Part shown: piece by piece, positions 10,339 through 33,614 of the stretch | How the letters are laid out: each line of letters starts with the position of its first letter | How positions within the stretch are numbered: position 1 is the stretch's first letter | Assembly: GCA_964498785.1 (NCBI GenBank) | Contig: CAZCJL010000020.1 | Span: 4,946 to 68,945 of the forward strand | Direction of reading: 5' to 3' | Origin: an uncultured Cytophagia bacterium | GTDB lineage: Bacteria > Zhuqueibacterota > Zhuqueibacteria > Thermofontimicrobiales > Thiofontviventaceae | DNA: 64,000 bases | Program-made: the position numbers and the translations under genes | Notes under the pieces: model-generated | Databases searched by the model: none | What the model saw: only the letters and a program-made list of their open reading frames with translations | What the model was told of the DNA's origin: nothing

Positions 10339-10366
10339 TTCCCTTTGAAATTAGATAGGAGGGTTA

Positions 10367-17199: not shown

Positions 17200-17706
17200 A
17201 TGATCGATTCTCAAAAATTAACAAAATCAGAATTACACGATCTTTTAGTCGATGCAGCAAAAAACTGGCTGGCACACGATGGTTTATGGTTTCTTGCCGC
17301 GGAAGAAAAATACGGAATGCCGGCTGCAATTGAACTTGACCGTGAAGCATGGCGAAAATTCACTGTGGTGGAAGCAAAACGAATCATGAAGCGTTTGGGA
17401 ATGGAACCTGGCGGAGGAATTCCGGCGTTAATAACAGCGCTGGATTATCGCCTTTATGCCTATATTAACATACAATCGGTTGAAGCTGTCAGCGCTAATC
17501 GGTGTATTTTTAAAATGAATAATTGCCGCGTACAAGCCGCCAGAAAAATGAAGAACCTCCCTGATTTTCCCTGCAAATCAGTTGGAATTGTTGAATATCG
17601 ATATTTTGCCCAAACAATAGATCCACAAATTAAAACAAAATGCCTTACCTGTCCCCCGGATGACCATCCTGATGATTATTACTGTGCATGGGAATTTACA
17701 ATCTGA
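17200..17706 (+). CDS. Conserved hypothetical protein (DGLWF motif, Cys-rich C-terminus)
   Basis: 168 aa. WLAHDGLWFLAAEEKYG and C-terminal CLTCPPDDHPDDYYCAWEF. Possibly a DUF-type small cytosolic protein. The 3' end overlaps the convergent aminotransferase remnant by 28 nt. Confidence 0.45.
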   Translation: MIDSQKLTKSELHDLLVDAAKNWLAHDGLWFLAAEEKYGMPAAIELDREAWRKFTVVEAKRIMKRLGMEPGGGIPALITALDYRLYAYINIQSVEAVSANRCIFKMNNCRVQAARKMKNLPDFPCKSVGIVEYRYFAQTIDPQIKTKCLTCPPDDHPDDYYCAWEFTI

Positions 17707-18401
17707 TTATGAATATTTTTCAAATTATCAAAATGCTTTTGATTTACATAAAGAAAACCTGTTCCCATTGGCCCAACTAACCATTTCATGCCACCGGCAC
17801 AATAAAAATCGATACTGTATTTGTTAAGCTGTGCCGGGATGGCGCCAACAGCCTGAATACCATCAACGATCAGATACAGACCATGTTCTTTTGCAATATC
17901 TCCTAATTTTGGAAGATTAAGACGGTAGCCGGACAAAAAATGGACATGATCCACAACAATTGCACGAGTATGACTATCAATATTTTCAATTAGCCTCCTA
18001 TAAAAGTTAACCCCGTTGTTTAGCGGAACATATTTTTTTTTCGCAACATCAAAAATATGATGCAGGATATACAAGCTCGCCGGAAATGCGTCGGCTTGTA
18101 CAATTATATTGTCCCCTGCTTTTAAGTCTATCGAGTGCAATGCAATTGATAACCCCTCGGTTGTATTATGAATGAATGCAATTTCATCAGAGTCAGCAGT
18201 AACCATTTGGGCCATTGCTGCCCGGAAGTCATTTAATTTGCTCATTATTTCCTCAATACGGGGCTCACCTGTTTCTACTAATTGATCAATTAACGACTTC
18301 ATGGCTTCTGTGCATTGTAACGGCATCATACCAACAGCAGCATGATTTAAATACGTCTGATTTGATTTATCATTAAAATATTTCCGGAATTTCTTATCCA
18401 T
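17679..18401 (-). pseudogene. Class V aminotransferase (cysteine desulfurase/SufS-like) N-terminal and large-domain fragment lacking the C-terminal small domain
   Basis: 240 aa. YLNHAAVGMMP near the N-terminus, HNTTEGLS, YLIVDGIQAVGAIP and the PLP-lysine region FYCAGGMKWLVGPMGTGFLY are all class V hallmarks. The ORF ends ~30 residues after the PLP Lys, whereas the family is ~380-400 aa. No downstream continuation in any minus frame; the + strand gene occupies the space. Confidence 0.45.
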
Positions 18402-18744: not shown

Positions 18745-20076
18745 ATGAACCGCTTACTCTCACAACGAGATATTTATATTTTATTTTTAATACTAATCCT
18801 CTTTTCTCAGAGATCCGTATTCGCTCAACAAGCTGAAAATGATTCCAGCCGAAATTATTTACAAAATATGAATCCTAAAATTCATCCATTACGTAATCAC
18901 CAAAAAGATCGTCCAGCTTTTGAAAAAGCGATGCGAGTACCAATAAATATCGTTGAATTTCCGTTTTGGGTTATGGGAAGAGGTTTGGAAAATTCACTTC
19001 AATATATTGAACATAATAAAATTTTTGAAAAATTTGAATTTATCGAAGATTGGCTTGAAAAGCATCATATTCTCTTCGAAGATGGATCTCAGGGTATTGG
19101 ATCTGGATTAGGCCCTGCTGTTGGTTTGTTCACCCATAGTGGGGATTTAAAATTAGCGGTTTCATCGGCGTTGACCACCTGGGGCTATCAAGGGCACAAA
19201 ATCTGGTTTGAATTACCGGAGCTTAATTGCCAAACTCGGTTAGATGGTTGGATAAAATTTCAAAATCGGACCCGGGATAATTTTTTCGGTATCGGGTCAG
19301 ATTCTAAGAATGATGACCGAACGCAATTTCAACAATCGAACGTTAACGGAGGCATTGAATTTTCGTATGCTACAAAAAAATTAAATTTAACTGCATCCAC
19401 AGACTTCACAAAATATAATGAAATTAACGATCCTTTCTGGTCTGGCAGTAAGTCAACAAAGGAAAGATTCAGCGAACTTCCGGGTATTGATGGCGCAGAA
19501 TTGGTTCGCGTGGGCTTACGGCTAACTCACCCGGAAGTCTTGTATAAAGGTTTACCAGGCGTTGAAATCGCTGTTGATTTTTCTGCCGATTATTTTTGGC
19601 AATTGGATTATGACAACAATCGTTTTGATAGATATACGCTTATTTTATATCAAAGCATCCCGCTGTTTCATGGGGATAGACTTTTCGCGATTCGATGTGG
19701 CGGCTCTATGACCAATACAAAAGGAAATTTGACTATTCCTTTTTATGCACTCAATAATTTTGGCGGATGGAATTCGCTGCGCGGGTATGAGAGTTTAAGA
19801 TTTAGAACCCTGGATTGGGTGCTTTTGAATCTGGAATATCGATATCCGATTATGGATATCGGTCTTGAAAATGGATTCGCAATTGATTTCCTCTATTTTT
19901 TTGACGCTGGCATTCCTTCAAATGAAATTGAAAATGATTTAAATATTAAAAATATTTTAAAAACTTACGGAGCAAGCATTCGCTTGCGAAAAAAACTCGG
20001 TGTCATTTTGCGGCTTAGTATTGCAAGAAGTTCAGAATCAACTTTAATCGGATTAAAAATTGGAAAGGATTTTTAG
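18745..20076 (+). CDS. Omp85/BamA-superfamily outer-membrane beta-barrel protein (no POTRA array evident)
   Basis: 443 aa with a signal peptide (…ILFSQRSVFAQQ). C-terminal region FLYFFDAGIPSNE…YGASIRLRKKLGVILRLSIARS…GLKIGKDF resembles the conserved Omp85 barrel C-terminus (FFDAGN…GLGLR…) and ends in an aromatic residue (F). Confidence 0.6.
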   Translation: MNRLLSQRDIYILFLILILFSQRSVFAQQAENDSSRNYLQNMNPKIHPLRNHQKDRPAFEKAMRVPINIVEFPFWVMGRGLENSLQYIEHNKIFEKFEFIEDWLEKHHILFEDGSQGIGSGLGPAVGLFTHSGDLKLAVSSALTTWGYQGHKIWFELPELNCQTRLDGWIKFQNRTRDNFFGIGSDSKNDDRTQFQQSNVNGGIEFSYATKKLNLTASTDFTKYNEINDPFWSGSKSTKERFSELPGIDGAELVRVGLRLTHPEVLYKGLPGVEIAVDFSADYFWQLDYDNNRFDRYTLILYQSIPLFHGDRLFAIRCGGSMTNTKGNLTIPFYALNNFGGWNSLRGYESLRFRTLDWVLLNLEYRYPIMDIGLENGFAIDFLYFFDAGIPSNEIENDLNIKNILKTYGASIRLRKKLGVILRLSIARSSESTLIGLKIGKDF

Positions 20077-20077
20077 A

Positions 20078-21796
20078 ATGAAGTGGTACTTTCCGTTGTT
20101 AATGATATTCGTTTTCTTTTACATTGTCAGTTGTGCCGGCCCATCAAGAGATTTAATCGTTGCCGGAAAATTAGATGATCTGCATGATCGAGAACCGATT
20201 CCGGAACCTGAATTGAGATCACCAAATCAATACTATGATTTTATTGATCGTGCAATATTTAAGCAAGTCCATTCCATATTTGACCTGCCGCGGCACGTGC
20301 GAGCAATTACTGCGCAGCCAAAACAGGCAATTAATGTTGATGCGTTTGATGAAGTTCCAAATTCAACATGGTTTACTAACCGTGCGTATCGAATTACTTA
20401 TAAAGAAGCGCTTAATGGCCCGAACGAGTTTGATGGCCCGGATATGTCTGCGCCATGGATTGTAAAAGGTGTAAAAACACAAGGTATTACACCTGGATTT
20501 CGTATTAAGGATCGTCAAGGAGATATCTACTTGTTAAAATTTGATCCGATTAGCAATCCGGAATTAGCCACTGGCGCTGAAATAATTTCGACGAAACTTT
20601 GTTGGGCAATCGGCTACAATACGCCTGAAAATTACCTGGTATTTTTTAAACCAGAGCAGCTCCTTATTAAAGGAGAGGTAAAACTTGTTGATGAGTTTGG
20701 TTATGATCGAATCTTGAAACCAGAGGACGTGACCCAAATTTTGACTTTTGTTCCCAAATTATCCGACGGTCGGATCAGGGCGGTTGCAAGCAGATTTTTG
20801 CCAGGAAAGCCAATTGGACCTTATTCATATTTCGGCACCCGGCCGGATGATAGCAACGACGTATTTCGCCATGAACATCGACGTGATTTACGCGGACTTT
20901 ACGTATTTGTGTCATTAATCAACCATAATGATATTCGTCGTATTAATTCATTGGACATGTATTGTTCGGAGGGATATATCAAGCATTACTTGATCGATTT
21001 TGGCTCAACTTTAGGAAGTGGTGCGACATCTGAGAATTTGCGAAGCGAAGGCTTTCAATATCAATTGGATTATGGTGAAATTGCAAAAGCCTTTTGCAGT
21101 TTCGGAATGTATACTTTTCCCTGGCAACGCATGAATCTGGAGTCCGGTTTTGAATCAATCGGGTATTTTAGCGGAAAATACGTAAATCCTGGCAAATGGA
21201 AACCGAACTATCCAAATCTTGCGTTTCAACGGTTAACAAACAGAGATGGTTACTGGGGCGCAAAAATTGTTATGAGTCTCACTGATGAGATAATCACGGG
21301 TATCGTTAAACAGGCACAATATTCTGATAAGGATGCTGAAAAATACATGACCAATACTCTCATTCAAAGAAAAAATACGATTGGTAAATATTGGTATCAA
21401 CAGGTGAGTCCACTCGATTGGTTCAAAATTTCAAATTTAACTAATGAAAATGGCCAGTTTTTTTCGTTTACTGATCTGGCAATTTATGAAAAATTCGAGA
21501 ATCAGGAAAATACCCGCTATAAAATTGAACTTAAATATAACAAGGCAACTGGTAGCGATCCATCAATTTTTGATGAAACAGTGATAAACACAGGCAAATT
21601 TCTAATTAGCCCTGAGATCGTTAAAATGGCTGATAAATTATGCATAAACAAGAAAAATCCGAATGAGCGTTTATTTTACATTCAAATTTTAACACAACGT
21701 AAAAATAAACCTGACTGGAAAAAAATCGTTAAAGTCCATTTACTTTTTGAGGACATCGATAGCGGTTTTAAAATAGCCGGAATTGAACGAAAATAA
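20078..21796 (+). CDS. Lipoprotein with protein-kinase-like (PKL) fold motifs
   Basis: Start at the ATG at 20078, directly after the upstream stop. Signal plus lipobox (MKWYFPLLMIFVFFYIVSCAG). Candidate motifs are beta3-Lys DIYLLKFDP, alphaC-Glu PELATGAEIIS, catalytic-loop HxDxxxxN in LINHNDIRRINSL, and the DFG metal-binding motif in YLIDFGSTLGSG. Confidence 0.55.
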   Translation: MKWYFPLLMIFVFFYIVSCAGPSRDLIVAGKLDDLHDREPIPEPELRSPNQYYDFIDRAIFKQVHSIFDLPRHVRAITAQPKQAINVDAFDEVPNSTWFTNRAYRITYKEALNGPNEFDGPDMSAPWIVKGVKTQGITPGFRIKDRQGDIYLLKFDPISNPELATGAEIISTKLCWAIGYNTPENYLVFFKPEQLLIKGEVKLVDEFGYDRILKPEDVTQILTFVPKLSDGRIRAVASRFLPGKPIGPYSYFGTRPDDSNDVFRHEHRRDLRGLYVFVSLINHNDIRRINSLDMYCSEGYIKHYLIDFGSTLGSGATSENLRSEGFQYQLDYGEIAKAFCSFGMYTFPWQRMNLESGFESIGYFSGKYVNPGKWKPNYPNLAFQRLTNRDGYWGAKIVMSLTDEIITGIVKQAQYSDKDAEKYMTNTLIQRKNTIGKYWYQQVSPLDWFKISNLTNENGQFFSFTDLAIYEKFENQENTRYKIELKYNKATGSDPSIFDETVINTGKFLISPEIVKMADKLCINKKNPNERLFYIQILTQRKNKPDWKKIVKVHLLFEDIDSGFKIAGIERK

Positions 21797-21824
21797 TCCG
21801 GTAAAATATGAAAGCGAGTACAAT

Positions 21825-23051
21825 TTGCATCACTTTATTAATAAATTTATAATAAAAATTGGCTTGATTTTGATAGTGATCTTTTATTCCTGTGCAAATA
21901 AAGGACTTGTGAGCGAGACATATAACAAAGACTATTATCAAATTACAAAACTGCTTCCGGAAAATAAAATCGAACAATCCGCTGTAAATTTTTTAATTTA
22001 TAGCGATAATCAGGCTGGATGGCGGATACAGCACAAATTTTTGGACAAATCACGATGGACAAGCCCTAAAATGCTACTGTTTCCATTTTATGAGATTTAC
22101 CTGTTAACAAATGGAGTTATCGGCGGTATTAATGGTCTTCGACATGTCCCTGATTATGGTAAAAATGAACGATTAATGATGCGGGATGTTATTTATTCAA
22201 CTGCACAAAAAATGGATGCTGCATTTATTTTAAACATCGGCGATATTAATGCTTACGATGGCAGACGCCCCGATCATTGGGAAACTTTCTTAAAAGAAAA
22301 CAAGCAAAACCATAATTTATTAAATGAAATTCCCTATTTACCGGTTATCGGAAATCATGAATATGCGAATGATCCCCACTATGGTTATCCGAATTATAAA
22401 GCAATTTTTGGTTATCCACGATTTTATGTAATCGAATTTCCGCAGGCAGCTATTTATGTTGTTGATTCGAATTATATACTCGATCAAAATCAATTCATTG
22501 AGAATAGCGTTCAGGACCAGTTGTTTACAAAGTGGTTTGTGCGGGATAATTTTACTGATACCCTCGCCTGGCTGGAAAAAAAGTTAATTGAATATGATAA
22601 GCCATTGACGATCGTGGCAATGCATCATCCATTGGTTACTTTTGGGAAGCATTATCAGGATTGGCACAATCCTGGGTTTGGGAATGCATTAATTGAGAAA
22701 CGAAACAAACTGATCGATCTTTTTCATAAATATGATGTGGATGTTGTTTTCTCAGGACATGAGCATTCTTATCAACATAATACGTCTACGTCCGAGGGCA
22801 GTAAAATACATTTTCTGGTTGGCGGAGGAGGCGGTACTCCGTTAAGAAATCCGCCAGATGAAGAAACTCAATTTAATATTTTAAATGAATACAAACAAGA
22901 GGGTCATGATGTACAAAATATTTCACTGGCGAAAATTTATCATTATTATACAATTAATATTGAAAATAATGAAATGACAATCAAAGTCATGAAAGTTAGC
23001 AAAAATATTGAACTCCCGATAGAGAAAATAAAAATAGTTGCTCCCAAATAA
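21825..23051 (+). CDS. Exported calcineurin-like metallophosphoesterase (purple-acid-phosphatase-like)
   Basis: Motifs GDINAYDG (GDxxY), VIGNHEY (GNHE), MHHP and FSGHEHSYQH (GHEH) give the complete metallophosphatase signature set. The tracked ORF starts at TTG 21783. An in-frame TTG at 21825 yields a clean lipoprotein-type signal (MHHFINKFIIKIGLILIVIFYSC). Confidence 0.7.
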   Translation: MHHFINKFIIKIGLILIVIFYSCANKGLVSETYNKDYYQITKLLPENKIEQSAVNFLIYSDNQAGWRIQHKFLDKSRWTSPKMLLFPFYEIYLLTNGVIGGINGLRHVPDYGKNERLMMRDVIYSTAQKMDAAFILNIGDINAYDGRRPDHWETFLKENKQNHNLLNEIPYLPVIGNHEYANDPHYGYPNYKAIFGYPRFYVIEFPQAAIYVVDSNYILDQNQFIENSVQDQLFTKWFVRDNFTDTLAWLEKKLIEYDKPLTIVAMHHPLVTFGKHYQDWHNPGFGNALIEKRNKLIDLFHKYDVDVVFSGHEHSYQHNTSTSEGSKIHFLVGGGGGTPLRNPPDEETQFNILNEYKQEGHDVQNISLAKIYHYYTINIENNEMTIKVMKVSKNIELPIEKIKIVAPK

Positions 23052-23087
23052 ATTTCTAATAATCGGATAATTACGTTAGGAGTTTTT

Positions 23088-24422
23088 ATGACCGGTCAAT
23101 TAAAAACAATAATGAACATCCGGCGGGATGAACTACCGTTTTCATTGTTCATGTTTACCTATTTTTTTCTAATCATTACAAACTTCTGGATTTTAAAGCC
23201 CTTAAAAAAAGGCTTATTTATCGGTTTTTATAAAGTGCGGGAAGGAGTAGATCTGTTCTCGTGGCATTTATTGGGTTCGCAAGCAGAACTTCTTGCAAAA
23301 GTATTGAATATGGTTGTCGCATTTTTCGCAGTTATTGTATTTACGTGGCTTGCCAGAAAATTCAGGCGACAACAACTTACATATATTTTTTCTGTATTTA
23401 TCGCATTCTGTCTGATTATATTTTCATTTGTAATCAATAAACCCAATGATTTAACCGTCTGGTTATTTTACTTGTTTGGCGACCTCTTTAACACATTAAT
23501 GGTCGCCACATTTTTTTCATTTCTAAATGATAGTGTAAATACTGATTCTGCCAAACGACTTTACGGTTTAGTTGTGCTCGGCGGTGTAACAGGAGGTGTT
23601 TTCGGAACTCAATTTGTGCGCATCTGGATTGATGACATGACAATGATTTCATGGCTCTGGATTTCCCTTTTTATTACCATCCTTATTGCGTTGATAGCGG
23701 GACTTGCCGGACGTATGGTTAAAGAAAATAACTTTGACGAGATTAAAAGCAAACCAACAATCAATGATAAAACAATAAAAACAAACGCTGCTATCGAAGG
23801 TGCCAAATTAGTTTTTAAATCAAAATACTTACTTGCTATTGTTGGTATTGTTGGATTTTATGAAATCCTTTCAACAGTCATGGATTTCCAATTTTCCGCG
23901 ACTATCGAACATTATCTTCATACGGAAGAAGCAATTGGCAAACAATTCGCAACAGTATTTTCGATTACGAACATCGTTGCACTGGTCGTCCAGCTCTTTC
24001 TGACAAGTTTTATTATGACAAAGTTTGGACTGACAGTTGCATTACTGATTTTACCATGCGCAATTATGTTTGGTTCGTTTACATTTTTAGCTTTTCCAAT
24101 TTTATGGGTTGGAAGTTTTCTGAATACGGCAGATAATGGTTTTAGCTATTCAATAAACCAATCAGCTAAAGAAGCGCTTTATGTTCCGACAAGCAGAGAC
24201 GAAAAATACAAAGCCAAAGCCTTTATCGATATGTTTGTGCAACGATTTGCCAAAGCATTAGCTGTTGGTATTAGCTTATTGATTACCACCATTTTTCGTG
24301 ATTTCTCCAGTATACGATGGCTATCCTTAATAACAATCATTGTTGTTGTTATTTGGATTCTTGTAGTTAGATTTGCTGGTAATAAATTTAACGAGTTGGC
24401 TCCTTCAAAGAAGAATGACTAA
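23088..24422 (+). CDS. TLC-family (ATP/ADP translocase-like, Npt-type) nucleotide transporter homolog
   Basis: 444 aa, ~12 TM. N-terminal ELPFSLFMFTYFFLIITNFWILKPLKKGLFIG resembles the TLC N-terminal signature (L.LMFFLI.FNY.ILR.LKD.L). DSAKRLYGLVVLGGVTGGVFG resembles the TLC AKRFYPLFG.GAN motif. Confidence 0.6.
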   Translation: MTGQLKTIMNIRRDELPFSLFMFTYFFLIITNFWILKPLKKGLFIGFYKVREGVDLFSWHLLGSQAELLAKVLNMVVAFFAVIVFTWLARKFRRQQLTYIFSVFIAFCLIIFSFVINKPNDLTVWLFYLFGDLFNTLMVATFFSFLNDSVNTDSAKRLYGLVVLGGVTGGVFGTQFVRIWIDDMTMISWLWISLFITILIALIAGLAGRMVKENNFDEIKSKPTINDKTIKTNAAIEGAKLVFKSKYLLAIVGIVGFYEILSTVMDFQFSATIEHYLHTEEAIGKQFATVFSITNIVALVVQLFLTSFIMTKFGLTVALLILPCAIMFGSFTFLAFPILWVGSFLNTADNGFSYSINQSAKEALYVPTSRDEKYKAKAFIDMFVQRFAKALAVGISLLITTIFRDFSSIRWLSLITIIVVVIWILVVRFAGNKFNELAPSKKND

Positions 24423-27225
24423 ATTAATTCGAAAAATACTGAATATAAATGAAGGTGAAGGATTAAAAGTATTTTTGATGTTTAGCTATATTTTTTTAGC
24501 TATCGCATCTCTTTTAATCGTTAAACCAGTTCGTAATTCTCTTTTTCTGAGCCATTTTGGTGTTGAAAAACTGCCGTACGCTTTTATTTCAGTTGCAGTA
24601 AGTGCAGCTATTTTTACAAATTTCTATTCCAGATATGCAAAGAAAATCCGCTTAAATATATTAATTTTCTATACAACCGTCTCATCCATTTGCTTTTTAA
24701 TTGTATTTTGGATTTTAATATTTTTAAATAGTAACGAAGGTTGGTTTTATTATTTTGTATATGCATGGGTTGCCCTTTTCGGTGTAATCACCACCTCACA
24801 ATTCTGGTTATTAGCAAATTATGTGTTCAATGCTCGTCAGGCAAAAAGATTATTCGGATTGATAGGAGCAGGTGCTATTTCGGGCGGAATCTTTGGCGGT
24901 TACCTGACCAAATTTCTGGCTCCGATAGTTGGAACAGGGAATTTATTTTTCTTTTGCATTTTTTTCCTGCTTCTTTGCCTCGTGATTATGAAAAAAGTCT
25001 GGAAACAAGGCGCCAGACAAACATATTCTGAGCGAATTCAGCAGGAAAAACGTATCCGAAAAAAATTAACTACCGACAAACCATTTGAATTGCTACAAAA
25101 ATCGAAGCATCTTTCGTATATCGCTGCTATCGTTAGCGTAGGAGTAATTGTTGCAAATCTAGTAGATTATCAATTTAGCGCCATTGCAAGTAATATCATT
25201 AAAGACGAAGATAATTTAACTGCTTTCTTCGGATTCTGGCTTTCCAATTTAAGTATTGCTTCACTATTAATACAATTGTTATTAACCGGTCGTAGTCTTA
25301 AAATATTCGGAGTCACGACTTCTCTCTTCTTTCTGCCATTTGGTATTTTAATTGGCGCGTTGGGCATTCTTTTCGATCCCAGGTTATGGTCTGCTGTTTT
25401 TATTAAGGTTTGTGACGGTAGCTTTAAGCAATCCATTCATAAGGCTAGTCTTGAGTTATTAGCTCTCCCCCTTCCAACCTCCTTAAAAAATCAAGGCAAA
25501 GCGTTTATTGATGTTTTTATCGATAGCCTGGCGACAGGAATCGGTGGAATATTTTTAATTATTTTTACGCAACAGTTCGGATTTTCTGTGCAACAAATCA
25601 GTTTTGTTTTAATTATATTCATAATTATTTGGTTTTACTTAATTAAGTCGGTAAAACAGCAATATATCAACTCATTTCGAACAGCAATTGAAAAAAGGTC
25701 AATCGATCTGCAAGATCAATATCTTAATATTCAGGAAGCATCTGTATTAAATAACATTTTAAAAATCCTTGATAGCAAAAACGAGCGACAAATTCTCTAC
25801 ATTCTTCAATTAATTGAAAATGTTAAAAGTGAACGTCTCATCCCTTATTTTAAAAAATTGATCAAACACCGATCCCATGAAATCAAAATACAGACATTGC
25901 GAATGATGAGAAATTATGAACACATTGATTTTGTTGATGATGTACGAAAGCTGACACAGGATTCCAATTTCAATGTAAAAGTTGAGGCGATTCGTTCTAT
26001 TTACGCAAATTCCAAAAACCGAAATCACGATTTAGAAAAATTATTAGTTGATCAGGATATTTTCATTCGAAGTGCGGCCTTACTATCCTCAGCTTATGAA
26101 CACAGAGATAGTAAGGAATTTCGAAAATCATTTAATATTAAAAACTTATTTGATCAATTTGTTGATAAATTTAGTGAGAAAAGTTTTCATCAGGAAGAAA
26201 TTGACTTTATGAAGACTGTCCTTGCAAAGGTAATTGGAATTTCAAAAATGACTGAGCTTTATCCATTTCTAAAAAATTTATTATTCGATAAAAATATAGA
26301 TGTTGTGCAAGAAGCGACAATTAATGCTGGTTTAACCAGACACAAAATGTTCTTCGAGATTCTTATACAATATTTAAACAAACACACTGTCAGAAAATAC
26401 GCTCGTAACGCGCTGGCAGAATATGAGAATGATGTTATTAATCCCCTAAAAAATTTATTGGAAAATGAAAAAGAAGACTATCAGTTGCGCAACGCAATTC
26501 CCAAAGTTTTGGCATTAATTGGAACCCAAGAATCAGTTAATCTATTGTTAGATAACTTGCTTCAGGAAGATTTAGCATTACGGTTTCAAATACTTCGGGC
26601 ATTAAACAGGTTACGAACGAATTTTCCATACTTAAAATTTGGGGACAACCGAATCCGAAATAGTATTGTTTTTGAGAGCAAAAATTACCATAAAATTTAC
26701 TCTTATTTATCAAATAGTGAATTGCTTGATAGCTATAACATCCAACACATACCTGATCATAAAAAAGCAAAAAAATCTCTCGATTTATTATTAACCTTAT
26801 TAAATGAACGTCTTGATAATACTCTTGAAAGAATATTTCGTCTGCTTGGTTTAAAATATTCATCTGGCGATATGTATAACGCTTATAGAGCGATAACAAG
26901 CAATAGCCCGGATTTGCGAGCGAATGCTGTTGAATTTCTCGAAAATATTCTGGACCCGAATTTAAAACGGATTATAATTCCAATTATAGAATATTCAACC
27001 AGTGCTTTGCTATCTGAGGAATTTAACTTCTCCCGAAAAGATGGTATGTTCCTGGAGCTATTAAAAGAAAAGGATTCATGGCTAAAAGTATGTACTATTT
27101 TCTATATTGCCGAGACTAACATGAACCATTATCAATCTGAAATAAAAAAACTAACAATGGATCATGATTCCACTGTTAAAGAAACCGCTGAATACGCTCT
27201 TGATTTATTAATAAATAGAAAATGA
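24415..27225 (+). CDS. TLC-family transporter domain fused to a C-terminal cytoplasmic HEAT/PBS-lyase-type repeat domain
   Basis: Start at the ATG at 24415 (MTKLIRKILNI…). ATGACTAA gives an 8-nt overlap with the upstream stop, suggesting translational coupling. The first ~440 aa have 12 TM, with GLKVFLMFSYIFLAIASLLIVKPVRNSLFL and QAKRLFGLIGAGAISGGIFGG motifs. The last ~500 aa are soluble alpha-helical repeats (e.g. ERQILYILQLIENVKSERLIPYFKKLIKHRSHEIKIQTLRMM…NVKVEAIRSI). Confidence 0.6.
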   Translation: MTKLIRKILNINEGEGLKVFLMFSYIFLAIASLLIVKPVRNSLFLSHFGVEKLPYAFISVAVSAAIFTNFYSRYAKKIRLNILIFYTTVSSICFLIVFWILIFLNSNEGWFYYFVYAWVALFGVITTSQFWLLANYVFNARQAKRLFGLIGAGAISGGIFGGYLTKFLAPIVGTGNLFFFCIFFLLLCLVIMKKVWKQGARQTYSERIQQEKRIRKKLTTDKPFELLQKSKHLSYIAAIVSVGVIVANLVDYQFSAIASNIIKDEDNLTAFFGFWLSNLSIASLLIQLLLTGRSLKIFGVTTSLFFLPFGILIGALGILFDPRLWSAVFIKVCDGSFKQSIHKASLELLALPLPTSLKNQGKAFIDVFIDSLATGIGGIFLIIFTQQFGFSVQQISFVLIIFIIIWFYLIKSVKQQYINSFRTAIEKRSIDLQDQYLNIQEASVLNNILKILDSKNERQILYILQLIENVKSERLIPYFKKLIKHRSHEIKIQTLRMMRNYEHIDFVDDVRKLTQDSNFNVKVEAIRSIYANSKNRNHDLEKLLVDQDIFIRSAALLSSAYEHRDSKEFRKSFNIKNLFDQFVDKFSEKSFHQEEIDFMKTVLAKVIGISKMTELYPFLKNLLFDKNIDVVQEATINAGLTRHKMFFEILIQYLNKHTVRKYARNALAEYENDVINPLKNLLENEKEDYQLRNAIPKVLALIGTQESVNLLLDNLLQEDLALRFQILRALNRLRTNFPYLKFGDNRIRNSIVFESKNYHKIYSYLSNSELLDSYNIQHIPDHKKAKKSLDLLLTLLNERLDNTLERIFRLLGLKYSSGDMYNAYRAITSNSPDLRANAVEFLENILDPNLKRIIIPIIEYSTSALLSEEFNFSRKDGMFLELLKEKDSWLKVCTIFYIAETNMNHYQSEIKKLTMDHDSTVKETAEYALDLLINRK

Positions 27226-27250
27226 TATCATTTAATAGCAGGTTTTTATC

Positions 27251-27676
27251 ATGTTAACAATTGTTGAAAAAGTTTTATTTCTTCAGGATGTGGATATCTT
27301 TGAGAACACAACGACAGAGGATCTTTCCCATATTGCCGCAATTACAGATGAAATCAATTTTAAGGCAAATACTGATATATATCAGATTGGAGATGTGTCT
27401 GACTCAATGTATTTGGTTATTGAAGGTAAAGTGCGGCTACATCATAACGACCGACAGGTGATGATAGCCCAAATAAAAGATGTATTTGGTACATGGGCTC
27501 TTTTTGATGACGAACCCCGCGTGGTAACAGCTACAACACTGCAAGATTCGGTATTGCTCAAAATTAACCGGGAAGAATTTTACGATTTATTGGCTGATCA
27601 CTTACAAATAACATTAGGAATTTTGAAAACGCTATCGAAACGACTGCGTGGGCTGGTGAATAGTGTCCGAAAATAA
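27251..27676 (+). CDS. Cyclic-nucleotide-binding (cNMP/CAP-effector) domain protein, stand-alone
   Basis: 141 aa. FLQDVDIFENTTTEDLSHIA…IYQIGDVSDSMYLVIEGKVRL…RVVTATTLQDSVLLKINREEF follows the cNMP-binding beta-roll pattern. No DNA-binding HTH is present. Confidence 0.7.
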   Translation: MLTIVEKVLFLQDVDIFENTTTEDLSHIAAITDEINFKANTDIYQIGDVSDSMYLVIEGKVRLHHNDRQVMIAQIKDVFGTWALFDDEPRVVTATTLQDSVLLKINREEFYDLLADHLQITLGILKTLSKRLRGLVNSVRK

Positions 27677-27720
27677 CACAAATAGGTCGAAACGGAAAAG
27701 CAAATTTTTTAACTAGATGC

Positions 27721-27749
27721 TTGCAATTTACAATCGTTTTTATTATATT
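27721..27749 (+). promoter_or_regulatory. Candidate sigma70-type promoter (TTGCAA-N17-TATATT) upstream of the REC gene
   Basis: TTGCAA at 27721-27726, a 17-nt spacer and TATATT at 27744-27749, ~65 nt upstream of the ATG at 27814. Confidence 0.35.
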
Positions 27750-27813
27750 GACTAATATTTATTTCTGATCTTGATGATTTATTCTAATTCTTCAAAAAGG
27801 AGATAATTTTTGT

Positions 27814-28296
27814 ATGTCTGAACAGGAATACAATGCGACGATTGTTGTTGTAGATGATGAAGATATGGTTTTGACAAGTATCGGTTCATTCCTGACTCTT
27901 GAAACTGACTATAATGTAAAAACCTTTACCTCGGCAGACAAGGCGATTAAATACATCGAAAATAGTGAAATCGATCTTGTTATTTCAGATTATCTGATGC
28001 CAGAAATGGACGGAATAACCTTTCTTGCAAAAGTCAGAACGATTAAACCGAATGTCCCCCGGATTATTTTAACTGGTTATGCTGATAAAGAAAATGCAAT
28101 CAAAGCCATTAATGAGGTTGGGCTTTTTCAATATATTGAAAAACCCTGGGAAAATGATGATTTGTTAATTATTATTCGAAACGGCCTTGAAAAGAAAATG
28201 CTAATGAATAAGCTTCAATTAAAAGTCGATGAAATAAATAAAGCTTATTCAGATTTACAAAATATACAGCAGGAAATTTTAAAAACATTTGTTTAA
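27814..28296 (+). CDS. Response regulator, receiver (REC) domain only (CheY-like) with a short C-terminal helix
   Basis: 160 aa. IVVVDDEDMVL (acidic pocket), DLVISDYLMPEMDG (phospho-acceptor Asp), ILTGYAD and conserved Lys in EKPW. No output domain. Confidence 0.75.
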   Translation: MSEQEYNATIVVVDDEDMVLTSIGSFLTLETDYNVKTFTSADKAIKYIENSEIDLVISDYLMPEMDGITFLAKVRTIKPNVPRIILTGYADKENAIKAINEVGLFQYIEKPWENDDLLIIIRNGLEKKMLMNKLQLKVDEINKAYSDLQNIQQEILKTFV

Positions 28297-28320
28297 TACA
28301 TATTCGAGTTTAGAAATAAA

Positions 28321-28359
28321 AATCCCATATCATTTCTATTAATGATATGGGATTTTTTT
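28321..28359. terminator. Bidirectional rho-independent terminator between convergent REC gene and nuoN
   Basis: Perfect 13-bp stem AATCCCATATCAT / ATGATATGGGATT with loop TTCTATTA. Flanked by an A-tract upstream and TTTTTT downstream. Confidence 0.6.
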
Positions 28360-28375
28360 AATTAATTAAATATTT

Positions 28376-29923
28376 TTAGAATAGCATTTTCGCCCATTCA
28401 AGCGCCCAGTTCATTAAGCGCGCGGGTAAAATTCCGAGAACTAAAATAAACAGAGTCGATAATCCGAGTGTTATCCAAACCGGAAACAAACTTTTTTTAT
28501 CAATGTCTGGGATTTTATTATCAGGTTCTTTCATATACATAACGATGATAATATTGATGTAAAAGTAAAGCGCTACCATGCTAAATAATAGCGCAACAAC
28601 TGCGGTTACATAGAATTCGCCATTAATTAATTGTAAGAAAATTTGGATTTTTCCCACGAATCCAACCGCTGGCGGTATTCCGCCAAGAGAGAACATAGCG
28701 ACAGACATCATTGCAGCGGCTCCGGGGTATTTTCTGGCGATGCCAGCGAGATCATCCACTGTTTCACAATAGTGCTCTCGATGTGTCAAAAAAACAAGCA
28801 CACCAAAAGCCAGCATATTCATCGCGATATAGCCAATACCGTAAAATAAAACCGCCTGAATTGCTTCAATATTATGCGCCATTGGCGCCAGAGCTAACGC
28901 CATGTATCCTGCATGAGCAATAGATGAATACGCTAACATCCGTTTAACATTTCGTTGTACAATGGCGACAGAATTTCCATAAATGATTGTTAATAGCGCA
29001 AAGAAAGCAAATATTTTTGAAAATAACGGATCAAATGCCGGCAATACAATCGATCCGGCAAAGATTTTTAAAATTACGGCAAAGGCAGCTAATTTGACGG
29101 CAACTGACATAAAAGAAGTAACAGGAGTTGCTGCGCCCTCATATACATCGGGCGTCCAGGCATGGAATGGTACCAGCGATACTTTAAATGCCAATCCCAC
29201 AAAAATAAAAATTAACCCCAGCCCCATTATCATTGATTCAGCAGATGAAGTTTGCGCTACTTGCGCTAATTGAGTGAGAACGTCATTAATAACTAAAGTG
29301 CCTGTCATTCCGTAAATGAATGAAATTCCTAACAGCAGGAATGCGGATGAAAAGCCTCCTAACAGCAGGTATTTTATTGCAGACTCTCCGACTTTTGAAT
29401 TATAGCGTTTCAGGCCGACTAGTGCGTAAATAGGAATGGACATCATTTCCAGGGACAGGAAAATCATTAAGAAATTTTCAGCCGCGATTAAAGTGAGAGC
29501 GCCGAGTAACGAAAAACAGAGTAGCAGGTAATAATCATTTGCCGGAATTGATTGTGATAACGTGTATCTGGCTGATAATAAAATTGTCAAAATTCCGGCT
29601 CCGAGAATAGCCAATTTTCCAATATATATCCCGCCACCTGCACGAAGCGAATCATTTAACAGAATTACATTTGCATCTGAAGTTGATTTTCCGAAATAGA
29701 GATAAATCGCGGCAACAATCAACAATCCTATCCCTGCAATCCATGTCGATTGTCTGTTACGAGATTCGATATCTGCTGTTATTTCTTGTGTACTACTTAG
29801 CATTGTAAAAATTGGTTTACGGAAAGCATCAACCAACGTAAGAATGACAATTAAGGCAACTAAACTTAATTCTCCGACTAAAAAAATTGGTTCAAATCCT
29901 ATTTGATTCATATCCAAATCCAA
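28376..29923 (-). CDS. nuoN: NADH-quinone oxidoreductase subunit N
   Basis: 515 aa, ~14 TM, antiporter-like subunit. Last gene of the co-directional nuo operon. Confidence 0.8.
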   Translation of the reverse strand: MDLDMNQIGFEPIFLVGELSLVALIVILTLVDAFRKPIFTMLSSTQEITADIESRNRQSTWIAGIGLLIVAAIYLYFGKSTSDANVILLNDSLRAGGGIYIGKLAILGAGILTILLSARYTLSQSIPANDYYLLLCFSLLGALTLIAAENFLMIFLSLEMMSIPIYALVGLKRYNSKVGESAIKYLLLGGFSSAFLLLGISFIYGMTGTLVINDVLTQLAQVAQTSSAESMIMGLGLIFIFVGLAFKVSLVPFHAWTPDVYEGAATPVTSFMSVAVKLAAFAVILKIFAGSIVLPAFDPLFSKIFAFFALLTIIYGNSVAIVQRNVKRMLAYSSIAHAGYMALALAPMAHNIEAIQAVLFYGIGYIAMNMLAFGVLVFLTHREHYCETVDDLAGIARKYPGAAAMMSVAMFSLGGIPPAVGFVGKIQIFLQLINGEFYVTAVVALLFSMVALYFYINIIIVMYMKEPDNKIPDIDKKSLFPVWITLGLSTLFILVLGILPARLMNWALEWAKMLF

Positions 29924-29991
29924 GTGCTTTTATAACCGATTGATTGTTATTTAATGGTACGAGCGATGAATCAATTATCAATTCAAAATAC

Positions 29992-31614
29992 CTAATGCGG
30001 AACCGGATTTTCGTGATTCGCTTCGACTTCTTCCTTTTTTTGTTCTATTGGTGTTTCTTTAACAAGTTTTTGTTTCAGGATTTCCGGTTGATATTCGTTA
30101 ATATAATATTCCACAGATTTATGCATTTTATTCATATAGGGTTTCGGATAAATTCCGATCCAGAAAACTGCAATAATAAACGGAACTAAAACAATCATTT
30201 CACGATAGCTCAGGTCTTTAAGATTTTTATTTTTATCATTATTCAATGGTCCAAAAAAGACTCGCTGTACCATCCACAACATATAATAGGCGCTAAGGAT
30301 CACTCCGGATGAAGCGAAAACTAACAGCACGAGTCGGAAAATACTGTTTTCAAAAATAAAATAAGACCACGCTCCTTTAAAACTGCCTAATAAAATGAGA
30401 AATTCGCCTACAAAACCATTTGTGCCGGGTAATGCGACCGAAGAAAGCGTTATAATCATAAATGAAACCGAGAGCAGCGGTAAGCGATAAGCCAAGCCTC
30501 CAAAGTCTCCGATTTCCCTGGTGTGTCTTCTTTCGTAAATCATTCCCACAAGCAAAAAGAGGGCACCAGTGGAGACACCATGATTCACCATTTGTAGAAT
30601 TCCGCCTTCGATTGCTTCCGGTGTCATTGCGAAAACACCGAGCATAACATAACCCAAATGACTTATTGATGAATACGCGACAAGTTTTTTAAGATCGCTT
30701 TGGGCGAGCGCCAAAAAAGCGCCATAAACAATGCCAATAACAGCGAGTAGCTGCATTAACGGAGCTGCAATTTCTGCAGCTTCAGCGAATAAAGGAATAC
30801 CGAGTCTTACAAAACCATATCCGCCCATTTTCAATAATACACCAGCAAGAATAACCGAACCAGCGGTTGGCGCTTCCACGTGTGCATCCGGGAGCCAGGT
30901 ATGAAACGGAAACATGGGCACTTTAATTGCAAATGCAAGTGCGAACGCAGCAAAGAGCCAAAGCTGAGCTTGTACGGGAATATCTAATTGAAATAATTTT
31001 TCAAATTCAAAGGTGAAGCTTCCAAATTGCTGTTTCGCTATTATCGCAAGGTAAATGATTCCTGCTAACATCATCAGGGAACCAATTACCGTAAACAGTA
31101 CAAATTTAACCGTGGCATAAATACGCCTGGGACCTCCCCAAATTCCGATCAGGAAAAACATCGGGATTAACATTAATTCCCAGAAGATGTAAAAGATAAA
31201 TAGGTTTAGCGCAACAAAAGCACCCAGCATGGTGGATTCCAAAAATAACAGCCAGATGTAATATTCTTTCTTTCTTTTTTGAATATATTTAAAAGAACTC
31301 AACACCGTGAACGGCATCATAATGGTTGTAAGCATAAACAGTAAAATAGAGATTCCATCGATTCCAACGTGATAATTGAGATCAAATTGCGGAACCCAGG
31401 GCACTTTTTCAACAAATTGAAACTGTGATGTTGAATTTTCAAAACCGAGCAACATGTAGACAGACACCAACATGGCGACACTTGTAATGATTAATGATAG
31501 CCAGCCATAAATAGATGCCGAGCTTTTTTCTTTCAAAGAGTCCCGATCCGGAATAAACATCAACAATATTGCGCCAAGTGCCGGGATTAAGATTGTCCAG
31601 GAAATTATGCCCAT
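29992..31614 (-). CDS. nuoM: NADH-quinone oxidoreductase subunit M
   Basis: 540 aa, Mrp-antiporter-like complex I subunit (…WLPDAHVEAPTAGSVILAGVLLKMGGYG…). Confidence 0.85.
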   Translation of the reverse strand: MGIISWTILIPALGAILLMFIPDRDSLKEKSSASIYGWLSLIITSVAMLVSVYMLLGFENSTSQFQFVEKVPWVPQFDLNYHVGIDGISILLFMLTTIMMPFTVLSSFKYIQKRKKEYYIWLLFLESTMLGAFVALNLFIFYIFWELMLIPMFFLIGIWGGPRRIYATVKFVLFTVIGSLMMLAGIIYLAIIAKQQFGSFTFEFEKLFQLDIPVQAQLWLFAAFALAFAIKVPMFPFHTWLPDAHVEAPTAGSVILAGVLLKMGGYGFVRLGIPLFAEAAEIAAPLMQLLAVIGIVYGAFLALAQSDLKKLVAYSSISHLGYVMLGVFAMTPEAIEGGILQMVNHGVSTGALFLLVGMIYERRHTREIGDFGGLAYRLPLLSVSFMIITLSSVALPGTNGFVGEFLILLGSFKGAWSYFIFENSIFRLVLLVFASSGVILSAYYMLWMVQRVFFGPLNNDKNKNLKDLSYREMIVLVPFIIAVFWIGIYPKPYMNKMHKSVEYYINEYQPEILKQKLVKETPIEQKKEEVEANHENPVPH

Positions 31615-31664
31615 GAATTAACTCCAAGTAAATTTATCTTTTCGAATAAAATCGAAAGTTCATA

Positions 31665-33614
31665 TTAGTAAATATAAAAAGCAAAAATAACGGCTATTGC
31701 GGCCCCAAAAATAATGTAGAGACCATACGCCTGAATATTTCCGGTTTGCAAAAATGAGAACAGTGTGGAAACTTGTCGCCACCCTTTTGCCGATCCATTA
31801 GCAGCGCCATCAATTATTTTTTTGTCGGAAATATTTAAAAATATTTTAGTCGCGAGAAATTTTATCGGGTTGATAACAACTTTGTCATATATTTCATCAA
31901 CAAAATATTTATTCCATAATAGCCTGGGAATGCCGGTGTACTTTTCTGGTTCAGGCAGTTCTTTTTTCACTTCACGATACAACCGGGAAGCAATGAACCA
32001 ACCGATGACGGCAATGACAACCGAAAAAAGCATCAACAAATATTCAACAGAGTGGCTGTAATGATGGAGCTCCACATGTCCGTATTTAGTAACTACTGGC
32101 TCGAGATAATGATGGAAAAAATTGGGAATTAACCCGCCGGAGAGAAGTTTTGGAATTCCGATCCATCCACCGATAAGAGAAAGAACGCCAAGAATTACCA
32201 GTGGAAGTGTCATTGTCGATGGCGATTCGTGTAAATGATGCGCCTGCTCTTTTGTGCCCCTGAATTTTCCGAAAAAAGTGAGATATACTAATCTAAACAT
32301 ATAAAATGCAGTGAAGAGCGCCGCAATTGCGCCAATTGCCCAGACAATTTTGCTACCATGGCCGGAAGCAAATACATTCCACAAAATTTCATCTTTTGAG
32401 AAAAACCCTGCAAACGGAGGAATGCCGGCAATCGCTAATGTCGCCAGAAGAAAGGTGAGATAGGTTGTGGGCATAAATTTCTTCAATCCGCCCATAAACC
32501 GAATATCCTGTTCGCCGCCCATTGCATGAATGACACTACCGGAGCCAAGAAATAAACAGGCTTTAAAGAAAGCGTGTGTCATCAAATGAAATATGGCGAT
32601 TACGAATGCACCTGCACCTGCGGCCATAAACATAAATCCAAGTTGGCTAACGGTTGAATACGCCAGCACCTTTTTTATATCGTTCTGATAAACAGCGATT
32701 GTTGCTGAAAAGAGTGCGGTAAGTGCTCCGACCCATAACACAACCTGCATTGCAACAGGTGCTGCAATGTAAAGCCCGTGAAAACGACACACCATATAAA
32801 CACCGGCAGTTACCATTGTGGCAGCGTGAATAAGTGCAGAAACCGGTGTCGGGCCAGCCATCGCATCGGGAAGCCATACGTAAAGCGGAATTTGCGCTGA
32901 TTTTCCCGTCGCACCAATGAACAAACAGATTGCAGCGACATTTGTCCAGAAAAATGTCATTGAATTTTGATGATGAAAAAATTCGTTCACTTCAGAAATG
33001 GTCAGCGAGCCAACATTTGCAAAAATAAGGAACATTCCAAGTAAAAAGCCAAAATCACCAATTCGGTTGACAATAAATGCTTTTTTTCCTGCAATTGCTT
33101 TTTCTTCTTCTTTATACCAAAAACCAATTAACAGATAGCTACACAGACCGACGCCTTCCCAACCAACAAACATTACCGGCATGGAATCGCCAAGAATCAG
33201 AAGTAGCATTGCAAAGACGAATAAGTTAAGGTATGAAAAATATCGAACGCTGGATTCATCTTTGTGAATATACCCAATAGAATAGAAATGTATAACTGAA
33301 CTCACTCCCGTCACGACGAGTAGCATAACTGCGGAAAGATGATCAATCATAAAAGTCAATTTCAGTTGAAGTCCTCCCACATTCATCCATTCATACGGTG
33401 TAAATGCAAGAAAATCAACACCAGTCATTTTAATAAAAACGGCATAAAGCGATAGGATAAAAGAAGTTGCGACAGTGCTAAAAGCCAAAATGCCAGCTAA
33501 TTTCTCTCCCCATATCTCTTTTTTGCGGTAGGCATTGGTAGCAGCTACCACTCCGTTTAAGAAGGCTCCGATTAACGGTAATATTATGATAATTAATATA
33601 AGGCTGCTCTGCAT
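31665..33614 (-). CDS. nuoL: NADH-quinone oxidoreductase subunit L
   Basis: 649 aa. WLPDAMAGPTPVSALIHAATMVTAGVYM is typical of NuoL, with a long C-terminal amphipathic helix region. Confidence 0.85.
   Translation of the reverse strand: MQSSLILIIIILPLIGAFLNGVVAATNAYRKKEIWGEKLAGILAFSTVATSFILSLYAVFIKMTGVDFLAFTPYEWMNVGGLQLKLTFMIDHLSAVMLLVVTGVSSVIHFYSIGYIHKDESSVRYFSYLNLFVFAMLLLILGDSMPVMFVGWEGVGLCSYLLIGFWYKEEEKAIAGKKAFIVNRIGDFGFLLGMFLIFANVGSLTISEVNEFFHHQNSMTFFWTNVAAICLFIGATGKSAQIPLYVWLPDAMAGPTPVSALIHAATMVTAGVYMVCRFHGLYIAAPVAMQVVLWVGALTALFSATIAVYQNDIKKVLAYSTVSQLGFMFMAAGAGAFVIAIFHLMTHAFFKACLFLGSGSVIHAMGGEQDIRFMGGLKKFMPTTYLTFLLATLAIAGIPPFAGFFSKDEILWNVFASGHGSKIVWAIGAIAALFTAFYMFRLVYLTFFGKFRGTKEQAHHLHESPSTMTLPLVILGVLSLIGGWIGIPKLLSGGLIPNFFHHYLEPVVTKYGHVELHHYSHSVEYLLMLFSVVIAVIGWFIASRLYREVKKELPEPEKYTGIPRLLWNKYFVDEIYDKVVINPIKFLATKIFLNISDKKIIDGAANGSAKGWRQVSTLFSFLQTGNIQAYGLYIIFGAAIAVIFAFYIY

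Follow-up and report, generated by a model that had tools for sequence, protein, structure and literature searches.

Two adjacent genes for carriers of the TLC/nucleotide transporter (NTT) family, the second of them fused to HEAT repeats, lie on contig CAZCJL010000020.1 of an uncultured Cytophagia bacterium (GCA_964498785.1), of which a stretch of 64,000 nucleotides (the window) was analyzed. Together with the genes for a stand-alone cNMP-binding-domain (cNBD) protein and a stand-alone receiver (REC) that follow them, they form the 3′ half of an envelope cluster of seven genes (18745-28296). The positions and domains that a preliminary description of this DNA had given for these four genes were borne out by Pfam, as was its view of the 141-residue cNMP protein and the REC-only protein, since neither a helix-turn-helix or other DNA-binding domain was found in the former nor an output domain in the latter. 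Overlooked by that description were three co-conserved genes upstream, which encode an outer-membrane barrel protein, a predicted kinase-like lipoprotein and a phosphoesterase. The features of the cluster are as follows:

18745-20076, + strand: Omp85-family outer-membrane barrel protein of 443 residues with a signal peptide, encoded at the 5′ end of the cluster (Pfam Omp85, NCBIfam Omp85_fam)
20078-21796, + strand: exported lipoprotein of 572 residues with a predicted protein-kinase-like fold and without a Pfam family (AlphaFold, Foldseek, motif set)
21783-23051, + strand: calcineurin/purple-acid-phosphatase-like metallophosphoesterase of 422 residues, predicted lipoprotein (Pfam Metallophos)
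23088-24422, + strand: TLC1, single-domain TLC/NTT carrier of 444 residues (Pfam TLC, 75.7 bits)
24415-24422, + strand: 8-nt overlap of the TLC1 stop and the TLC-HEAT start, ATGACTAA (direct sequence reading)
24415-27225, + strand: TLC-HEAT fusion of 936 residues (Pfam TLC, 60.4 bits; HEAT_2, 54.6 bits)
24415-25695, + strand: membrane domain of TLC-HEAT, 12 helices, NTT fold (Pfam TLC, AlphaFold, Foldseek)
25738-27225, + strand: cytoplasmic HEAT solenoid of TLC-HEAT, residues 442-936 (Pfam HEAT_2, AlphaFold, AlphaRep matches in the PDB)
27251-27676, + strand: stand-alone cNBD protein of 141 residues with a variant phosphate-binding cassette, FGTWALFDDEPRVVTA (Pfam cNMP_binding, 64.2 bits)
27721-27749, + strand: promoter-like TTGCAA-N17-TATATT 5′ of the REC gene (score 9/12)
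27814-28296, + strand: stand-alone REC of 160 residues with a C-terminal helix (Pfam Response_reg, 95.6 bits)
28318-28364, no strand assigned: hairpin of 17 bp flanked by an A-run and a T-run, separating REC from the convergent nuo genes (predicted bidirectional terminator)

The intergenic gaps within the cluster range from -14 to 137 nt, and the cNBD gene begins 25 nt after TLC-HEAT. The overlap of the two carrier genes had been noted before and was confirmed at 24415-24422; overlaps of this type, of either 4 or 8 nt, recur in related loci (L001, L002, L003, L005, L010 and L012).

In textbooks, NTT carriers serve as markers of energy parasitism. Their fusions with HEAT repeats make up, according to Major, Embley & Williams (2017, Genome Biol Evol, PMC5381601), a single monophyletic clade with a wide distribution among free-living bacteria, and the presence of NTTs in such bacteria has been without an explanation since that report. 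In the same paper, a cNBD gene was described a few nucleotides 3′ of the NTT-HEAT gene in some genomes, in an apparent operon, and single-chain NTT-HEAT-cNBD fusions of three domains were shown to exist. With its HEAT repeats C-terminal to the NTT domain and its cNBD gene downstream, the window locus is a member of this clade, and its core layout has been documented since 2017. What is new is the tight linkage of REC, a clade-specific variant of the binding loop and the association with an exported kinase-like family; PMC5381601 mentions neither a receiver gene nor an upstream single-domain paralog, a GxW loop, or Omp85, kinase-like and phosphoesterase genes. Furthermore, nothing relevant came up when the literature was searched for periplasmic kinases combined with ATP export and for NTTs of these phyla.

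The conservation of the cluster was followed across 80 genome loci from several phyla, whose open reading frames (ORFs) were scored with the window proteins using phmmer; since the metagenome scans retain the best-matching loci, they do not sample all lineages independently. A cNMP ortholog was found within 600 nt 3′ of TLC-HEAT in 45 of the 77 loci with room for it (median distance, 32 nt), which places this arrangement far beyond chance. REC orthologs accompanied the cNMP gene in 35 of the 39 positive loci that extend at least 1.5 kb downstream and occurred in no cNMP-negative locus, while the upstream single-domain TLC gene occurred in 28 of 40 cNMP-positive and 0 of 29 cNMP-negative loci. 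The same pattern holds for the kinase-like gene, which was present in 24/34 cNMP-positive compared to 0/23 cNMP-negative TLC-HEAT loci with at least 5 kb upstream. Conversely, of 80 kinase-centered metagenome loci, 23 extend at least 3 kb to either side, and 21 of these have a TLC gene within 9 kb; a TLC-family gene was present in 10 of the 11 with at least 6 kb. TLC1 is a commoner partner of the kinase-like gene than TLC-HEAT. One large NTT-HEAT subclade is, in other words, genomically tied to a signaling pair, consisting of a cNBD and a near-invariant receiver, as well as to exported kinase-like lipoproteins.

The order of the genes varies among these loci. The block from TLC to REC is found 5′ of the Omp85-kinase pair (L117, L118, L121 and L138), 3′ of it as in the window, or inverted (L094 and L109), and in L022 the Omp85 and kinase genes come after REC. 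In the soil lineages L096 and L123, a minimal trio of Omp85, kinase and TLC genes is flanked by unrelated genes on the opposite strand. Four contigs with members of the kinase-like family were looked up, two of which carry TLC genes alongside and two of which do not. The arrangement with a free cNBD spans KSB1, Zixibacteria, Calditrichia, Gemmatimonadota, Latescibacteria and others. Across phyla, the median identity to the window proteins is 72% for REC, 63% for TLC1, 61% for the cNBD and 46% for TLC-HEAT, which places the two small proteins, REC and cNBD, among the best-conserved parts of the module. The closest named relatives of the window are candidate division KSB1 metagenome-assembled genomes (79% identity).

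The 572-residue protein encoded next to the Omp85 gene has no match in Pfam or NCBIfam, and the approximately 3000 relatives retrieved by a word-filtered search are all nameless or "hypothetical". An AlphaFold model built from a 30-sequence alignment (pLDDT 90) has PDB neighbors in Foldseek that are almost all kinases or kinase-like proteins, namely HipT, Fam20C/A, PI4KIIα, Rio2 and PINK1. Invariant in 30 diverse sequences are a Gly-rich β-hairpin (K133/G136/G140), K154, E168, H283-x-D285-x4-N290 and D307-F308-G309. In the model, Lys154 ends a strand, Glu168 lies in the next helix, HxDxxxxN follows a helix and DFG comes two strands later; the catalytic motif set (Gly-rich loop, β3 Lys, αC Glu, HxDxxxxN and DFG) is thereby complete and placed on the matching secondary-structure elements. 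A cysteine at the end of the signal peptide (Cys19) is conserved in at least 90% of the sequences, and orthologs bear either lipoboxes or ordinary signal peptides. Based on model and motifs, the protein probably adopts a protein-kinase-like fold; we read it as an exported kinase-like enzyme, with less confidence in the activity than in the fold itself.

Among known kinases, the top Foldseek match is the HipA/HipT group of toxin kinases (7ab4_F), in which HxDxxxxN and DFG are arranged in a similar way. However, HipA/HipT are cytoplasmic toxins with an antitoxin, whereas the 572-residue lipoprotein is exported, has an Omp85 protein as its partner and shows no sequence similarity to them. A second parallel is the secretory-pathway kinase Fam20C, which is fed by an ER/Golgi ATP carrier that imports ATP into the lumen. 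As in that system, a kinase-like enzyme outside the cytosol would need an ATP carrier, and the best structural matches of the 572-residue protein include Fam20C and Fam20A. Yet the resemblance is distant (TM-score approximately 0.3-0.4, 8-12% identity), the carrier families are unrelated, and the compartment is here a bacterial periplasm.

Of its exported partners, the Omp85 protein matches PF01103 with 29 bits in the window (cut-off 24) and with 56-58 bits in its orthologs, and in almost every related locus its gene directly precedes the kinase-like one. In a Calditrichae genome (L084, 11669-13015), an Omp85-kinase pair without a TLC gene is followed by genes for an epimerase and an ABC1/UbiB-type kinase. 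The phosphoesterase matches Metallophos (PF00149) with 49.4 bits (cut-off 21.5), its translation contains the motifs GDxxxY, GNHE, MHHP and GHEH, and its orthologs carry a lipobox Cys. Its gene was found in 11/34 cNMP-positive loci with room for it.

Both carriers exceed the gathering cut-off of 21 for Pfam TLC (PF03219; TCDB AAA family), with matches that span only model positions of approximately 145-491. The preliminary description had noticed that they share an N-terminal signature and an AKRL(Y/F)GL…GG motif, and in agreement with this, TLC1 and the membrane domain of TLC-HEAT align over their full length with 26% identity (E=1e-38), including both of these elements. TLC1 matches AtNTT1 (PDB 9j3j) with E=5.7e-12, and the KE..Y.P...K.KAxID and AK(R/K).Y motifs are aligned. 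For TLC-HEAT, an AlphaFold model (pLDDT 79) places 12 long helices in residues 16-427, followed by a disordered linker and an all-helical solenoid that extends to the C-terminus. The solenoid (pLDDT mostly 85-95), which has AlphaRep matches in the PDB, comprises approximately 490 residues and thus corresponds to the HEAT domain of about 500 residues that had been proposed. In Foldseek, 9j3n, 9j3m and 9j3l rank on top for this model (TM-score 0.66-0.72), with VMAT and NorA lower. Since these NTT structures outrank other MFS carriers and the Pfam TLC match agrees with them, the assignment of the membrane domains to an unrelated MFS family was rejected and the proposed TLC membership stands.

The window carriers have the Pfam family, the 12-helix fold as modeled for TLC-HEAT and the signature motifs in common with the canonical ATP/ADP translocators (AtNTT1, Chlamydia Npt1/NTT1 and Rickettsia Tlc1; 9j3l, 9j3m and 9j3n), while being only about 17% identical to them and having additional regulatory partners. 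Moreover, the hosts of the clusters described here appear to be free-living environmental bacteria, whereas the canonical translocators are those of obligate intracellular bacteria or plastids. According to their PDB entry titles, the solved NTTs (9j3l, 9j3m) bind ATP and ADP/Pi. The 936-residue architecture itself is common, with more than 1600 full-length homologs of approximately 940 residues in the protein collection, which bear source names such as "Npt1/Npt2 family nucleotide transporter" and "AAA family ATP:ADP antiporter". Of the two carriers, TLC1 has retained more of the canonical motifs and is the commoner partner of the kinase-like gene; therefore, TLC-HEAT may be a regulated or regulatory paralog.

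In a number of loci, KSB1 genomes among them, a different single-domain TLC paralog takes the position of TLC1 (L002, L003, L005, L009, L010, L012, L016, L018, L019, L024, L025 and L033). It scores 114-150 bits against TLC1, compared to 550-650 bits for true TLC1 orthologs, and its location 5′ of TLC-HEAT suggests that one carrier partner has been exchanged for another.

The stand-alone cNBD protein, well above the Pfam cut-off of 27.5 for cNMP_binding (PF00027), has in common with cNBDs of the CRP/PKA type this family match, a β-barrel with a C-helix and the Gly, Arg and Ala of the cassette, but it differs from them in having no effector domain and in changes at the Glu, Leu/Met and Ser/Thr positions. 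Compared to the canonical phosphate-binding cassette, FGE[LM]AL...PR[ST]A, the loop of the window protein and 46 orthologs reads FG-T-W-ALFDDEP-R-VVTA (clade pattern FG(T/S)W…PRV). The cNMP-binding residues, whose absence would have spoken against the preliminary description, are thus kept in part: Gly80, Arg90 and Ala94 each show a conservation of 95% or more, whereas the canonical, ribose-binding Glu is replaced by Thr/Ser, Leu/Met by Trp and the Ser/Thr after Arg by Val throughout the clade. Epac-type cNBDs likewise lack the Glu of the cassette.

The single-chain TLC-HEAT-cNMP proteins to which the locus had been compared do exist. In an exhaustive search with confirmation by Pfam, fusions of 1000-1090 residues were among the closest relatives of the 141-residue protein, their C-terminal domains being 40-50% identical to it, and a second group of 1200-1270 residues contained two cNBDs. 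The GxW loop is found in the single-cNBD fusions, while the double-cNBD fusions have a canonical FGEMALL…PRSA loop. In a neighbor-joining tree, which was calculated without support values, the GxW domains form one clade, within which fused forms are interspersed with free ones in at least 5 places. Fusion or fission has therefore been recurrent, and the recurrence is good evidence of a physical partnership with the HEAT protein and none for a recent split in the window.

In the receiver (PF00072), the canonical residues D14, D15, D59, T87 and K110 are conserved among 36 orthologs, and residues 81-120, which form the α4-β5-α5 face, are nearly invariant. Its best NCBIfam match (146 bits) is to the N-terminal 140 residues of a NosR-family REC-HD-GYP regulator. 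While the protein has the phospho-acceptor residue set of single-domain response regulators and of REC-HD-GYP/NosR receivers, it differs from these in its unusual conservation, in its genomic tie to TLC-HEAT and cNBD, and in the lack of a cognate kinase in the window. In other genomes, the cNMP and REC genes are separated by additional genes, which encode a soluble PAS-HisKA-HATPase kinase, a REC-SpoIIE (PP2C) protein or a phytase-like/SdiA-regulated lipoprotein; no counterparts of the latter two were found upon searching the 64-kb window. The PAS-HisKA kinase adjoins REC in L006 (inserted genes at 10359-11141), L008 (4503-6710), L011 (5926-8348), L027 (10271-14033), L055 (10312-14347) and L083 (15399-16982).

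A promoter of its own had been proposed for the REC gene. The TTGCAA-N17-TATATT element is indeed present at 27721-27749, and its hexamers and spacing are kept in the nearest relative, L001, within intergenic DNA that has otherwise diverged. However, similar matches are not enriched in this AT-rich stretch (50 compared to 44.4±7.2 in shuffled sequences). We therefore rejected the promoter as a statistical claim and retained it as a conserved site; an internal promoter before REC is plausible.

Taken together, these genes could form a regulated system for supplying ATP to the periplasm. TLC1 and the HEAT-bearing carrier, being made together, would constitute a regulated nucleotide-exchange module of the inner membrane. 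The cNBD protein would dock on the HEAT solenoid, to which it is covalently fused in other lineages, and the receiver would supply a two-component phosphorylation signal, so that the cNBD and phosphorylated REC, by binding the HEAT domain, might gate transport and limit a costly flux. The preliminary description had already suggested control of the carrier in trans by the cNMP protein with input from REC, and this is plausible in view of the confinement of REC and the upstream carrier to cNMP loci and of the PAS kinase insertions. This regulatory part, taken alone, we consider probable.

As for transport, the carriers may be ATP/ADP(+Pi) exchangers. In cells with ATP production of their own, exchangers of this kind would move ATP out and retrieve ADP, and the proposed direction is thus export, in contrast to the import by canonical ATP/ADP translocators. 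Periplasmic ATP would then feed the exported kinase, and the phosphoesterase would undo the phosphorylation. We infer the substrate, the transport direction, the protein contacts and the kinase targets in this scheme; a supply of cytoplasmic ATP to an exported kinase by carriers that take up periplasmic ADP in return and are gated via HEAT by the cNBD and the receiver is in our estimate a real possibility that falls somewhat short of an even chance. Its generalization is more doubtful, namely that KSB1, Zixibacteria, Calditrichia, Gemmatimonadota and Latescibacteria carry out extracytoplasmic ATP-dependent phosphorylation, in which ATP exported by NTTs fuels a new family of kinase-like lipoproteins with a dedicated Omp85 protein, an opposing phosphoesterase and a cNBD/receiver throttle; it is put forward tentatively.

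Several observations weigh against ATP export to a periplasmic kinase. On the side of the carriers, the NTT-HEAT clade has no characterized member (PMC5381601), and judged by sequence, both proteins are distant NTT members and not equivalogs of characterized exchangers, as their scores for TIGR00769 (NTP/NDP exchange transporter) of 65.9 bits for TLC1 and 41.9 bits for TLC-HEAT do not reach the cut-off of 387.2. Moreover, TLC-HEAT lacks the Lys of the KE..Y.P motif as well as the acidic residue that is present in TLC1. On the side of the kinase, the structural match is weak (Foldseek E of approximately 5e-4, TM-score 0.26-0.41), and a profile of the family searched against PDB sequences gave chance matches only, with no kinase match at the sequence level. 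The linkage is also incomplete, since the kinase-family members L081 and L084 have no TLC gene nearby and many TLC-HEAT genes stand alone (Bacteroidota, some Calditrichia). Finally, a search of the 64-kb window for a histidine kinase found none, and given the noncanonical loop of the cNBD, its ligand may not be cAMP or cGMP.

Unlikely, if still a serious contender, is transport in the opposite direction, with the carriers scavenging extracellular nucleotides from decaying biomass, by ATP/ADP exchange or proton symport, and the phosphoesterase and the barrel processing or admitting the substrates. All characterized NTTs import nucleotides or nucleotide derivatives, and the cNBD and REC could tune uptake to the energy state of the cell, as proposed by Major et al. 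(PMC5381601). Uptake would further suit the origin of the relatives from sediments and soils, the exported metallophosphoesterase and the phytase-like lipoprotein of some related clusters. However, it leaves unexplained why the tightest partner of the TLC genes encodes an exported protein with a full set of ATP-dependent kinase motifs. In addition, a periplasmic phosphatase would destroy incoming nucleotides, and Omp85 barrels handle proteins and are not solute channels.

The cargo might also be something other than a free nucleotide, such as a precursor activated by a nucleotide, a phosphorylated metabolite or a cofactor like NAD or SAM, and the exported kinase-like enzyme and the phosphoesterase would then use or make this compound in the envelope. 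Kinase-like folds include AMPylases as well as sugar and lipid kinases, the structural matches of the 572-residue protein include Fam20A/C and PI4KIIα, and the relatives of Fam20A/C include a sugar kinase. Furthermore, both window carriers are very divergent from ATP/ADP translocators, and NAD and SAM carriers exist within the NTT family (PMC5381601). Nevertheless, no positive evidence points to any particular substrate, and TLC1 keeps the family signature motifs in alignment with AtNTT1, and we regard such a cargo as unlikely.

It is improbable that the neighborhood of exported proteins represents inherited synteny without function, with TLC-HEAT, cNBD and REC acting alone. Although some TLC-HEAT genes and some kinase-family genes do occur by themselves, and the scanned loci are the closest relatives and not independent samples, the linkage outlasts the changes of order and orientation described above (L022, L094, L109, L117, L118, L121 and L138), spans several phyla and is associated in an all-or-none manner with the cNBD subtype (24/34 compared to 0/23).

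The least probable explanation by far, which takes up the split and duplication suggested in the preliminary description, is that a single-chain TLC-HEAT-cNMP gene was recently split and duplicated to give this locus, since, despite the 40-50% identity of the cNBD to these close relatives, a recent duplication was rejected for carriers that are just 26% identical and thus old paralogs, TLC1 has separate orthologs of 60-69% identity in other phyla, the free cNBD arrangement extends across KSB1, Zixibacteria, Calditrichia, Gemmatimonadota, Latescibacteria and others, the fused forms are scattered among free forms in the tree, and fusion was argued to be the derived state (PMC5381601).

Returning to ATP export to a periplasmic kinase, the association with the kinase-like family offers a concrete and testable reason for the occurrence of NTTs in free-living bacteria. 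If the model is true, it would explain the persistence of NTTs in bacteria that are not parasitic, and it would reveal a new kind of energy supply to the envelope together with a new bacterial kinase family. The working assumption that no ATP-driven kinase chemistry takes place in the periplasm would then be overturned. If the export model is false, the cluster still defines partners for any functional study of NTT-HEAT proteins, including the uncharacterized NTT-HEAT homolog of Chlamydia.

With respect to the boundaries of the cluster, 343 nt separate the Omp85 gene at its 5′ end from a divergent, shortened aminotransferase gene. This class V aminotransferase ORF (17679-18401, - strand, 240 residues) matches just model positions 2-222 of 371 and is possibly a remnant of a truncated gene; at its 3′ end, it overlaps with the last part of a gene for a full-length DUF6125 protein (17200-17706, + strand, 274 bits), which lies just 5′ of the cluster. 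The 3′ end of the cluster is marked by the hairpin at 28318-28364 (-22.5 kcal/mol, z = -5.87), for which none of 200 shuffled sequences was equally stable. Beyond it, the large membrane proteins encoded at 28376-33614, and probably up to about 42354, on the - strand resemble, by our own reading, subunits N, M and L of NADH:quinone oxidoreductase. The first of these nuo-like genes 3′ of REC gave a 934-bit match to the gene that adjoins REC in L001, which extends the synteny with the cluster into the nearest relative.

Three ORFs located within the conserved TLC-HEAT reading frame (24741-25031, 25170-25436 and 26537-26899) were rejected as genes. An Rfam scan returned a tRNA only, with no match in the cNMP-REC spacer; this tRNA-Arg(CCG) at 1648-1721 is the sole RNA gene detected in the window. 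The cumulative GC skew reaches its maximum at approximately 26000-30000, and the genes flip from the + to the - strand at the REC/nuo junction, which could reflect either a replication-terminus-like convergence or merely a coding-strand bias.

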